Source of the DNA: Candidatus Thorarchaeota archaeon
Lineage (GTDB): Archaea > Asgardarchaeota > Thorarchaeia > Thorarchaeales > Thorarchaeaceae
Direction of reading: 5' to 3'
NCBI GenBank assembly: GCA_048882485.1
Contig: JBHLRP010000063.1
Span: 1 to 17,961, forward strand
Length of the DNA stretch: 17,961 nucleotides
Shown: piece after piece, positions 9,311-17,961 of the stretch
How positions within the stretch are numbered: the stretch's first letter is position 1
Layout of the letters: every line of letters begins with the position of its first letter
Program-made: the position numbers and the translations under genes
The notes under the pieces: model-generated
The model's database searches: none
Told to the model about the DNA's origin: nothing
The model's input: the letters and a program-made list of their open reading frames with translations, nothing else

Positions 9311-9387
9311 GCCGCGGTAGATCAGCCAGGGAGATCGCACGGCTGAAGACCGTGTTGTCCGCGGTTCAAATCCGCGCCGCGGCACCA
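9311..9387 (+). tRNA. tRNA-Phe(GAA), intronless, CCA encoded
   Basis: Acceptor GCCGCGG/CCGCGGC, D stem GATC/GATC, anticodon stem CACGG/CCGTG with loop CT-GAA-GA (anticodon 9345-9347), T arm CGCGG-TTCAAAT-CCGCG, ACCA end. Confidence 0.97.
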
Positions 9388-9495: not shown

Positions 9496-9951
9496 ATGCG
9501 CAGGCTCAATCCAAAGAAACTCCATGTTCGCTATAATTCACCAACTTCAGAAGAAGACCCAATTCATCCAAGATGCTATACATTAACACATTCAGATCGA
9601 ACTGGCGATCTCTTTCTCACAGTTGGACCAGAATATGATAAGAAGCAAATTCGAGGACTTTATACACGCCTCATGCGAGATGAAGTCGTTGCTGAGTGGA
9701 GGGATGGCGAAGAAGTGTCAGAACTTCATGTTCATTGCGAAGTAGGTAGAGGACTTGGTTCAGCTAAGATGAGAGAGAACATCTTTCGCAGAGAACTCGA
9801 TTTGGTTCTAGAAGCATTCTGTTATGGTAATCGTCAGTTTTTCGAAAAACATCCCATTCTCGATTCTGCAAGAATTCTGGTGCATTTTCATGCACGGAAG
9901 AAGGTAAACGATGAAGTGGAAGATTGGGGTAGGCTAGAGAATTATTCTTGA
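9496..9951 (+). CDS. Staygreen (SGR) family protein, Mg-dechelatase homologue
   Basis: LNPKKLHV, PRCYTLTHSDRTGDLFLTVG, RDEVVAEW, LHVHC, IFRRELDLVLEAFCYG, VHFHA, EDWG. Confidence 0.92.
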   Translation: MRRLNPKKLHVRYNSPTSEEDPIHPRCYTLTHSDRTGDLFLTVGPEYDKKQIRGLYTRLMRDEVVAEWRDGEEVSELHVHCEVGRGLGSAKMRENIFRRELDLVLEAFCYGNRQFFEKHPILDSARILVHFHARKKVNDEVEDWGRLENYS

Positions 9952-9969
9952 CAGTAAATGAGTTAGGGT

Positions 9970-9995
9970 GTTCAAATCCACGCCGCGGCACCATT
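9970..9995 (+). repeat. Direct-repeat copy of tRNA-Phe 3' end (att-like, from G53 through CCA plus TT)
   Basis: GTTCAAATCCACGCCGCGGCACCATT vs GTTCAAATCCGCGCCGCGGCACCATT (9364-9389): 25/26 identical. Confidence 0.93.
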
Positions 9996-15629: not shown

Positions 15630-16020
15630 ATCCCCCTTGTGAATTACATGTTTAAAATCACTTCTTCAGGTCCTCCAAACGCCTGCATTGGCCGAATAGA
15701 TATTGATAAGTGAGACGCCTCGTTGTCAGGCGAAGAATCAAGGTCATCATTGAGATGCCGGACCGACTGAATCCATGAAGCGGTTCTCAAAGCCGTCATA
15801 AATCGATCAGTGAGTTCGATTCTCGCCGCGACAGATTTGTTGGTGATGTGATTCTGTATGCAGTCGTTGGCTTCTGCAGTCAGACATGCATAGATGGATG
15901 CTGGACTCATGAACCACAGCATCATGACCTTCCTCTTGGGTGCCCTGAAACTACAATGACTCTACCCTAAAACCCGCATTTGATGAAATAAAGCTTTGCT
16001 CAGTAAGTGAATGGTTGAGT

Positions 16021-16045
16021 AATACTTGCAAAAACCGCAAGTATT
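16021..16045. repeat. Perfect 9-bp inverted repeat upstream of dut
   Basis: AATACTTGC-AAAAACC-GCAAGTATT. Confidence 0.6.
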
Positions 16046-16095
16046 TGTGAGAGAACGAACGAAAGCATAGTAACCAAATCCAAGGTGCCAGAGAT

Positions 16096-16542
16096 ATGGG
16101 AAACGATCCAGTCATTGTTGCGGTTAAACTTCACCATCCTGATGCAAAGGTACCAAGGCTGGCGAATCAGGGAGATGTAGCATTCGATTTGTACTCAGTC
16201 GAAGATGTGACATTGAAACCGGGGGAGTGGCATGCAGTGGCCACCGGAATCTCCCTCGAGATAGCTCCCGGCTATGAGGGGCAAGTGAGGCCGAGAAGTG
16301 GCTTGGCACTGAAACATGGTGTGACAGTTCTCAATGCACCAGGCACCATAGACAGTGGCTACCGTGGTGAAGTTAAGTCAATCATGATTAATCACGGGAA
16401 AGAGCCCTTCAAGATAACCAAGGGAATGAGGATCTCTCAACTGGCTATTCGTGCTGTTCCCAAGGCTCTCTTTGAGGCTGTCGATGACCTTGAAGAGTCT
16501 GAACGGGGAGAGGGGGGCTTCGGTAGCACGGGAATGAAATGA
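16096..16542 (+). CDS. dut: dUTP diphosphatase (trimeric dUTPase)
   Basis: All five motifs: AFDL, RPRSGLA, GTIDSGYRGE, RISQL, RGEGGFGSTG. Confidence 0.97.
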   Translation: MGNDPVIVAVKLHHPDAKVPRLANQGDVAFDLYSVEDVTLKPGEWHAVATGISLEIAPGYEGQVRPRSGLALKHGVTVLNAPGTIDSGYRGEVKSIMINHGKEPFKITKGMRISQLAIRAVPKALFEAVDDLEESERGEGGFGSTGMK

Positions 16543-16558
16543 GCGTCTTGTCGCAATG

Positions 16559-16566
16559 TTTTTAAT
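16559..16566 (+). promoter_or_regulatory. TATA-like box for tRNA-Val
   Basis: TTTTTAAT 30-37 nt upstream of the mature 5' end. Confidence 0.55.
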
Positions 16567-16620
16567 CGACATCATTGGTCATGACGAACCTGAATGGGCC
16601 GGTGGTCTAGCCCGGCTATG

Positions 16621-16652
16621 AACAAATCGGAATCATTCCGATAGGTTGGAAA
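16621..16652 (+). other. tRNA intron 1, 32 nt, non-canonical D-arm position (23/24; 24/25 gives the same product)
   Basis: Removal restores the D stem. Relaxed BHB: central GCTA(16615-18)/TGGA(16647-50) pairs 3 of 4, bulges TG|A and AA|A, inner pairs AC/GT, then hairpin ATCGGAA-TCA-TTCCGAT. Confidence 0.8.
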
Positions 16653-16666
16653 ATACCGCATTGACA

Positions 16667-16696
16667 TGCGAGCCTGACTCCCACGCACGCTCAAAC
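16667..16696 (+). other. tRNA intron 2, 30 nt, canonical 37/38 position
   Basis: Strict BHB: central helix TTGA(16661-64)/TCAA(16691-94), bulges CA|T and AC|G, inner helix GCG/CGC, outer helix is the anticodon stem. The junction is independently matched by the intronless copy at 17645. Confidence 0.93.
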
Positions 16697-16747
16697 GTGC
16701 GGTGGTCACGTGTTCAAATCACGTCCGGCCCACCATCTTTTGCCAAT

Positions 16748-17599
16748 CTAGTCCAAGATTCGAGTCAGTGTCGACGTTCCGCCGCCCCAACTAATAGGAT
16801 AGGTACGAATAATTAATGGAACGCCATTCTCGTACGATACATCTGCATCCCAACCTGGAGCGCCAGTACAACCTATAGAAATCCATCCGAATAGTAAGTA
16901 ATCACCATAGGATTTTGAGAACCAAGGATCCTGAACTCTTGAACCGAACCCACCACGAGGACTATCGTAAAATAGTCTGTCAATGTAGTTCCAATCGCCT
17001 ATGGGTAGAAGTGCGTGTGAAAACAGGCTTTTAGCATCATTTTCAATATCTGGACTAATACTACTACCATTCTCATAGACGGCACTGGCTTTCACATGAT
17101 TCACCAGAGATTCGCAAAATGCCCTACTGTCACAGTACAACGGAATTTCAGGAAGGCTCTCAATAGTAAAGACGATAATCGAGTTGTTCAACTCCAACAG
17201 ATAGTAGTCGAGGAATTCGCCCCCATAATATTCAGACGTGGATTCAACACTATATGAAAACTGATCGCCTTCTTCAATGCCCCAGTAGAGATTACCCGAA
17301 TAGCTAACTGCATGGAATACCATCGCTAGAGATACAAGATTGACTACAAGAATTGCAGCTACAATTTGTTTCCACCGTGTGCCAAGATGACTTTCCAATG
17401 CCATTCTTGCGTTGATGCGGTTTCTGAAAAGCAGGATAATTGCAGCTGATAGAATAACAAGCGGAGAGAGAATAACGGAGAGCGAGAACATCCATAGAGT
17501 TCCAGCGGTATAAAGAAGGATTGGACTGATTAGAATCCCAGATATTATGAATATGCATGCATAGTATGCTCTTGCTGCATGTTCGGATCTATTATTCAC
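16748..17599 (-). CDS. Hypothetical protein, 3 N-terminal TM helices plus probable extracellular domain
   Basis: 283-aa ORF with GTG start; three hydrophobic helices, then WGIEEGDQFSY...LPEIP...LLPIGDW...GVP. Confidence 0.85.
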   Translation of the reverse strand: MNNRSEHAARAYYACIFIISGILISPILLYTAGTLWMFSLSVILSPLVILSAAIILLFRNRINARMALESHLGTRWKQIVAAILVVNLVSLAMVFHAVSYSGNLYWGIEEGDQFSYSVESTSEYYGGEFLDYYLLELNNSIIVFTIESLPEIPLYCDSRAFCESLVNHVKASAVYENGSSISPDIENDAKSLFSHALLPIGDWNYIDRLFYDSPRGGFGSRVQDPWFSKSYGDYLLFGWISIGCTGAPGWDADVSYENGVPLIIRTYPISWGGGTSTLTRILD

Positions 17600-17644
17600 A
17601 CTCTTTCGTAAGGTAATTAATTCACTTTACCTTTTTTGGAATTG

Positions 17645-17693
17645 ATTGACAGTGCGGTGGTCACGTGTTCAAATCACGTCCGGCCCACCATCT
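17645..17693 (+). repeat. Intronless copy of tRNA-Val 3' half (A31 to CCA plus TCT), att-like
   Basis: ATTGACA|GTGCGGTGGTCACGTGTTCAAATCACGTCCGGCCCACCATCT equals 16660-16666 joined directly to 16697-16738; 49/49 identical to the spliced sequence plus trailer. Confidence 0.96.
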
Positions 17694-17761
17694 ACTTCTG
17701 TGTGAATTGCCAACAGCTGACCATGAGCAAATTCTGCTCGATTGTAAAATCATATGGGCAG

Positions 17762-17961
17762 CTAAGGCCAATTGCATCCATCAGAATTATCATTGTCTGC
17801 TATCGTTACTGTTGCACCACTCATAGTATCTTCAATATTGATTCCGAAGTGATTTCCGTATATTGTATTTGATGTGATGATGATTCTGTATGACACCTCA
17901 GCTTTGATAGCATCTCCGTCGTTGTTTGTGATAGTATTGTTATGTATCACTGCATTTGTTA
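17762..17961 (-). CDS. C-terminal part of a right-handed parallel beta-helix (NosD/CASH-like) repeat protein, starting beyond the window
   Basis: Frame is open to the window edge: TNAVIHNNTITNNDGDAIKAEVSYRIIITSNTIYGNHFGINIE with the I.NN.I..N...GI.I repeat pattern. Confidence 0.7.
   Translation of the reverse strand, partial: TNAVIHNNTITNNDGDAIKAEVSYRIIITSNTIYGNHFGINIEDTMSGATVTIADNDNSDGCNWP

Follow-up and report, generated by a model that had tools for sequence, protein, structure and literature searches.

The window analyzed here is the complete contig C63 (17,961 nt) of a 3.96-Mb MAG of Candidatus Thorarchaeota archaeon (G000; 90.5% complete, contamination 5.8%). Near its right end, a dUTPase gene (16096-16542, plus strand; Pfam PF00692) forms a conserved left flank, which precedes tRNA-Val(GAC) in the relatives as well. 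The tRNA-Val(GAC) gene itself (16596-16735, plus strand) is divided into three exons. Exon 1 (16596-16620) is followed by a 32-nt intron at D-arm position 23/24 (intron 1, 16621-16652), designated type A, and exon 2 (16653-16666) ends with the att core TTGACA (tRNA positions 32-37). A second intron of 30 nt (intron 2, 16667-16696) lies at the canonical position 37/38, and exon 3 (16697-16735) encodes the CCA end and leads into a pyrimidine-rich trailer. Removal of 16621-16652 and 16667-16696 results in a normal 78-nt tRNA with a restored cloverleaf. Intron 2 is enclosed by a strict BHB motif, in which TTGA (positions 32-35) pairs with TCAA near the intron end and the bulges are CA/T and AC/G; both introns are presumably spliced. 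An Rfam scan of the region 15900-17961 gave zero matches. The variants of intron 2 contain an internal CTGAC or TTGAC (16674-16680 in the window), an echo of the anticodon-loop core.

Behind this gene, a spliced-form 3′ half of tRNA-Val(GAC) was found at 17645-17690 (plus strand; tRNA positions 31/32-76), which closes a unit of 955 bp as an attR-type scar. The sequence-only reading, from which this study started, had described ATTGACA joined to GTGCGG and onwards to CCA exactly at the 37/38 junction, and the copy was indeed a 100% match to the spliced tRNA. It is also identical in 46 of 46 positions to the intron-free gene of the sister species G005. The probability of a chance 7-mer match, given before as 1 in 16,000, was recomputed with the local base composition to be about 1 in 10,000; a chance junction can be dismissed, since the identical junction recurs in about 20 other copies. 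As to the start of the copy, TTGACA was confirmed while the leading A at 17645 may belong to the cassette: most copies begin at TTGACA (position 32), and the preceding letter is G, C, T or A. Two further arguments of the earlier reading turned out to be weaker than stated. The shared TCT behind CCA, taken as a mild sign of DNA origin, says little: almost every trailer is rich in pyrimidines, and TCT was counted behind 12 of 106 Val(GAC) genes and fragments. Perfect identity, taken as a sign of recent events, sets a loose bound only, as 0 changes in 46 positions would permit a divergence as high as about 6%, and exon 3 does not vary in most of the genus. A second tRNA-Val(GAC) gene, which had been considered as the source of the copy, was not found in the 90.5% complete genome. 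One ARAGORN match on C14 with this assignment was spurious and represents another tRNA, mis-spliced.

The cargo of the 955-bp unit (cassette 1) is a 283-aa protein with N-terminal hydrophobic segments (16748-17599, minus strand), which belongs to no Pfam or PHROG family. Its close homologues, as far as they were checked in context, are all located in tRNA-Val(GAC) arrays of Thorarchaeia. The remaining part of the window (17691-17961, minus strand; open frame 17762-17959) is the start of cassette 2, a unit of about 1.08 kb encoding a beta-helix protein. The contig end overlaps both C40 and C142 by 77 nt, forming a strain bubble. On the C40 path, the gene is followed by the 955-bp unit, the spliced copy, the 1.08-kb unit, a second spliced copy with one mismatch (C40:843-887) and the conserved flank. 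The C142 path continues with a shorter copy (C142:877-913) and a paralogue of cassette 1 (70% identical), which ends in ATTGACA with no tRNA half behind it. The copy at 17645-17690 is one of three such fragments, and the array is longer than had been seen from the window alone and varies between strains. All cassette boundaries observed are tRNA fragments.

In the closest species by rpoB, G005 (95%) and G002 (92%), the gene has no intron 2 and the site is empty of a cassette. In both species, the gene leads into the flank found behind the last copy of this genome; of the 120 nt behind the CCA of G005, 117 are identical to those behind this copy. Since its flank is that of the empty site in G005, the last copy sits where the intron-free ancestral gene ended. 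Exact look-ups of two proteins of the downstream flank gave zero matches.

Fragments of this kind were located behind the tRNA-Val(GAC) gene at about 60 loci of Thorarchaeia, with a spacing of mostly 0.4-4 kb. The size distribution is bimodal, with one class of 20-30 nt that begins at the T-loop and one of 38-46 nt that begins in the anticodon loop. None extends beyond position 31/32; the maximum is 46 nt, and the fragments cluster at 45-46 nt. This hard 5′ limit matches the anticodon-loop border at which IntSSV1 cleaves (PMC8371274), which counts for integration in the anticodon loop. The 37/38 intron is retained in fragments at four loci (G001, G011, G030 and partly L226), and an intron in the V-loop is retained in five fragments. 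The latter, 30 nt in length, is found in L038, L065, L072, L073 and L079, and among the working genes sampled only in that of G082 (L089), suggesting an allele that was formerly more common than now.

The direct repeat of the tRNA 3′ end, its 5′ edge in the anticodon loop and the empty site in relatives are features of an att scar. By behaviour, the copy is an anticodon-loop att scar; the integrase expected of one was not found. Tyrosine integrases (PF00589, PF16795) were found neither in the cassette nor in G000 (90.5% complete), a search of G000 for a resolvase (PF00239) was negative, and an integron IntI integrase is likewise not indicated, the genome having no PF00589 match. An enzyme for the integration step was thus not found in this genome. 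PF00589 is present in 29 of 86 genomes of the family, and none of the 20 PF00589 loci inspected lies beside a Val(GAC) site. G000 is without any PF00589 match although att-like scars are abundant in it.

Intron 2 is an allele in circulation. Of the 43 genes tallied, 23 have it and 20 do not. It is identical in 30 of 30 positions in G080, a member of another genus (rpoB identity 75%), and is absent in G005, G002 and the conspecific contig L259. G000 and G015 (rpoB 86%) have both introns in common, with 30 of 32 (intron 1, type A) and 29 of 30 (intron 2) identical positions, and in both the two introns jointly flank the att core. In the sister of each, G005 and G001 respectively, the D-arm intron is a different one and intron 2 is missing. 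This other D-arm intron, type B, occurs in the sister species and in the conspecific strain.

The comparison with L259, a contig from another study, delimits the left part of the exchanged tract. Only 1 of 2,130 upstream bases differs from the window, followed by 9 of 68 at 16524-16591 (Fisher P = 1.5e-13), so that the differences start 72 nt upstream of the gene. The L259 allele has intron 1 of type B, no intron 2, and an altered anticodon stem and T arm. Its upstream variants were found as a minority in another sample dominated by the window allele (depth 16 vs. 118). At four positions each, G005 agrees with the window strain and with L259. Because a crossover in the anticodon loop cannot alter a D-arm intron or upstream bases, these differences point to an exchange of the whole allele by homologous recombination. 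A whole-allele intron polymorphism is therefore present within one species. The locus had been proposed to be a snapshot of tRNA intron gain; this is right in so far as the intron is polymorphic within the species, and wrong if taken to mean that it was freshly invented here, as the same 30 nt are found in another genus.

Within L259:2203-2308, a compensatory change in the anticodon stem is shared with G001. The 3′ end of this gene is identical to that of the tRNA-Val(TAC) of G000, suggesting a conversion between isoacceptors. Tandem pairs of tRNA-Val(GAC)-like genes were also observed (L062:854-1143 in G070 and L053:393-652 in G066), in which the upstream gene is rich in introns and the downstream gene is without the 37/38 intron.

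Cassette and intron are not linked. Homologues of cassette 1 stand behind intron-free genes (G010 and G092) as well as behind intron-bearing ones (G000, G099 and L265); between G092 and L265 the cassette DNA is 83% identical while the intron state differs. Conversely, the 37/38 intron was found at empty sites in G021 and G102, and near-identical introns precede different first cassettes in G000, G015 and G013. The cassettes without intron in G010 and G092 fit an order in which the cassette came first. So does the arrangement of intron-bearing gene, cassette and spliced copy, which recurs independently at other loci. This order, with an intron gained after integration that split the core and locked the cassette in, was one of three models proposed before, and it fits best as far as the order is concerned; the gain of a new intron at this place was not borne out, and the locking was found to be leaky, because intron-bearing halves were displaced at four loci and copies of the T-loop class stand behind intron-bearing genes. 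Of 25 copies that show the junction, 21 have the spliced form, compared to 20 of 43 genes that lack the intron (Fisher P = 0.004; 0.015 when counted per genome; related genomes are not independent). In the array of G011, the intron-bearing copy is proximal and the spliced copies are distal. The intron probably lowers, and does not abolish, later integration in the anticodon loop. A conspecific intermediate with cassette and without intron was not found.

The explanation that we favor, with a little more confidence than doubt, is that the cassettes integrated into an intron-free allele and that the gene was then replaced by the two-intron allele through homologous recombination. Small cassettes lacking an integrase would enter the intron-free tRNA-Val(GAC) gene by crossover at the left edge of the anticodon loop, mediated by a recombinase that would act in trans. 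Each cassette would supply a replacement 3′ half with its trailer and push the resident half downstream, so that the copy at 17645-17690 would be the displaced 3′ half of the intron-free allele. Later, a two-intron allele that circulates among Thorarchaeia would have taken the place of the working gene, through homologous recombination or gene conversion with anchor points upstream and in exon 3. What came in may have been just the gene or a larger block that included cassettes, and a double-strand break made by a tRNA-targeting HNH nuclease is a candidate trigger. Site-specific integration by a trans-acting recombinase and the order of events are what we infer from the repeats, their 5′ limit, the empty site and the exchange tract. 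Several points speak against this explanation: no tyrosine recombinase or resolvase was found in G000, no conspecific intermediate turned up, the window has no diagnostic letter between gene and copy that would argue against a crossover 3′ of a resident intron, four loci have intron-bearing copies, and in G098 the gene, and not the copy, has the T-stem letters of the clade.

The case of G098 fits better to a junction derived from a donor. Here the intron was already resident, the att of the cassette had been made in an intron-free donor, and the crossover took place within the 39 identical bases 3′ of the intron, so that the junction records the allele of the donor and not the past of the lineage. 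Crossovers 3′ of the intron are common, as seen from the copies of the T-loop class, the homologue of cassette 1 on C142 ends in TTGACA even without a tRNA half after it, and in G098 the gene has the T-stem haplotype of the clade while the spliced copy has another. In the window, no diagnostic letter distinguishes gene and copy. This possibility is considered unlikely, as it has to occur twice in this genome and as the spliced copy of L265 has the private T-arm letters of its host, leaving about 9 nt for the crossover; moreover, the intron is missing from the two sister species and from a conspecific strain, so the lineage had an intron-free past in any case. Alternatively, the second model of the sequence-only reading has the intron delivered by the cassette, whose att would carry an intron-bearing 3′ half and cross over site-specifically at TTGACA. 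An intron vector of this type has a published precedent (Sugahara et al., 2012; PMC3293823). In G003, G080 and G090, the 37/38 intron is found in the gene but not in the adjacent copy, which has a V-loop intron instead, as if whole 3′ halves had been swapped, and in G011, G035 and G086 an element encoding a multi-HTH HNH-motif protein brings a full replacement tRNA-Val with its own 37/38 intron. The strict co-occurrence expected from delivery fails in both directions, however, with cassettes lacking the intron (G010, G092) and introns lacking a cassette (G021, G102), and nearly the same intron is followed by differing first cassettes in G000, G015 and G013. In addition, the change is not confined to the att side, since intron 1, which lies 5′ of the core, and upstream bases changed too, and neither the intron nor a tRNA 3′ half was found in the viral contigs searched. 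Delivery by the cassette is accordingly judged to be rather improbable for this locus.

Reverse transcription of the spliced tRNA and insertion of the product, the third model, would explain that the copy is spliced and extends to the CCA end. The CCA is encoded in the gene, however, and the copies are not dispersed: all of them belong to the array that follows the gene, their 5′ boundary is at the anticodon loop, some retain introns, and the last one sits on the flank of the empty site. No reverse transcriptase (RVT_1) was found in G000, and a survey of Asgard intron gains saw no cDNA signature (bioRxiv 10.64898/2026.10.13.758758). This origin is regarded as highly improbable, and the copy is supported to be a DNA-derived, att-type fragment that preserves an older intron-free allele. 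A chimeric assembly, in which the gene of an intron-bearing strain was joined to the cassette of an intron-free strain, had also been considered. The population is heterogeneous, with the bubble after the contig end, other alleles in the same samples and the contamination of 5.8%. Nevertheless, a second MAG (GCA_048882085.1, 99.7% identical) spans the dUTPase gene and both introns into the cassette, and in unitigs (k = 31) from two samples the cassette is accompanied by the spliced junction with 100% identity. The read depth of gene and cassette is similar in both samples (35 vs. 25 and 95 vs. 101), and the contig overlaps of 77 nt exceed the repeat of 42-49 nt. Finally, the layout of intron-bearing gene, cassette and spliced copy recurs in G015, G013, G098, L265 and L287, on single contigs of other species, and an artifact of this kind is highly improbable. 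Reads with intronless joints (16621 to 17645) are most readily attributed to other Thorarchaeia whose genes have no introns at all, and they were not used as evidence.

For the exchange of alleles that we favor, a candidate nuclease was identified in relatives. This protein is 845-977 aa long, contains several HTH domains and, at the C-terminus, two CxxC-H-CxxCH motifs of the HNH type, and is encoded in antisense directly behind tRNA-Val(GAC) at loci of five relatives; it is absent from the window. At three of these five loci, a stub of the host gene is followed by a complete replacement tRNA-Val(GAC), which has a 37/38 intron of its own. By analogy with SegB of phage T4 (PMC2330249), this protein could start a non-reciprocal conversion of the allele. 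The host 5′ stub and the divergent full replacement gene are located at L041:1-170 (G011), L050:841-1057 (G035) and in L066 (G086). A distant paralogue is encoded in G000 itself (C26:183-1604), adjoining an intron-containing tRNA. LAGLIDADG matches in G000 are long frames on other contigs, with none at the tRNA-Val(GAC) locus. A 357-aa gene inserted upstream of the tRNA in G015 and G016 was considered as a nuclease and turned out to encode a FAD-binding protein.

The closest precedent is the tRNA-Thr(GGU) locus of Caldiarchaeum subterraneum (Sugahara et al., 2012; PMC3293823). Both loci show an intron polymorphism at one tRNA gene in a population, a displaced fragment that keeps the older intron state, and an insertion between gene and fragment. 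The C. subterraneum locus has a 5′ fragment, a non-canonical intron at 24/25 and a putative recombinase gene in the insert, and is known from a few fosmids. The tRNA-Val(GAC) locus, by contrast, has 3′ halves and a canonical 37/38 intron that splits the crossover core, no recombinase was found, and tandem arrays occur in dozens of genomes, with evidence of whole-allele exchange instead of att delivery. The attL/attR duplications of tyrosine integrases (SSV1 and pNOB8-type elements; PMC8371274) share the direct repeat of the 3′ end, the 5′ limit at the 7-nt loop, the anticodon-loop and T-loop classes, the tandem reuse of the site and the occurrence of remnants without integrase. The units described here differ from those elements in being only 0.4-4 kb long, mostly with one gene, in that no integrase was found in units or genome, and in that an intron distinguishes the gene from the repeat. 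Thaumarchaeal elements are already known to integrate into tRNA genes that contain introns (PMC6563490), and they resemble the present case in their targets.

That introns protect tRNA genes against integration was proposed by Randau and Soll (2008), as cited in PMC4390854 and PMC3293823. In that form it is a hypothesis rather than a described system. The locus agrees with it in that the intron splits the crossover region of the anticodon loop and the displaced halves are mostly intron-free; the agreement is partial, given the four intron-bearing copies and the continued insertion of the T-loop class. For the replacement of the allele, the phage T4 nuclease SegB, according to the account in PMC2330249, offers a model in the nuclease-initiated, non-reciprocal transfer of a tRNA region with its flanks; unlike there, the window contains no nuclease, and the HNH-motif protein behind the tRNA in relatives is the candidate. 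Recent lineage-specific gains of BHB introns in Asgard archaea were reported by Goswami et al. (bioRxiv 10.64898/2026.10.13.758758), who call the arrival of tRNA introns an open question. That survey concentrated on other families, recognized mobile elements through hallmark proteins and found no general route of arrival; cassettes without integrase combined with allele exchange would probably escape such a test.

More tentatively, the cassette arrays might be a time-ordered fossil record of tRNA alleles, and Asgard introns might have spread as horizontally exchanged resistance alleles. By disrupting the anticodon-loop site that cassette recombinases or tRNA-cutting HNH nucleases target, the introns would sweep through strains and genera; we regard this as a possible reading and would not rely on it. 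If true, it would supply the route of arrival left open by the 2026 survey (bioRxiv 10.64898/2026.10.13.758758) and a first population-scale test of the protection hypothesis. At this locus, one species has alleles with and without the intron, two genera share an identical intron, sites are found both empty and occupied, and the displaced copies keep a record of earlier alleles, so that the arrival of an intron can be followed in progress. Furthermore, it separates three ideas that are usually merged, which are delivery by the att site, exchange of the whole allele and protection against integration. As a feature, the scar is of an ordinary kind; what the locus contributes is its replication across genomes and the alleles segregating within one species.

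Similar fragments were found in G000 behind other tRNAs, including those for Phe, Lys, Leu and Tyr. The tRNA-Phe gene (9311-9387) is followed by a unit of 606 bp with a Staygreen-family gene (9496-9951) and by a 3′ copy of the T-loop class (9968-9995), whose trailer resembles that of the empty tRNA-Phe of G002. The tRNA-Phe of G005 has a T-loop intron, which is missing in that of G000. Further arrays of 3′ fragments are located at C82/C103, C71/C132, C20:21221 and C26:18974, and include tRNA-Lys with five copies, tRNA-Leu(GAG) and a copy of tRNA-Tyr of the anticodon class. In one array of G000, the tRNA has a T-arm intron and the copies start at GAA, the last bases of this intron. Among the tRNA-Val(GAC) loci, a unit of 392-394 nt recurs at L060, L061 and L035 (G093, G098 and G020), where it follows both intron-free and intron-bearing 3′ halves and is closed by a spliced copy in each case.
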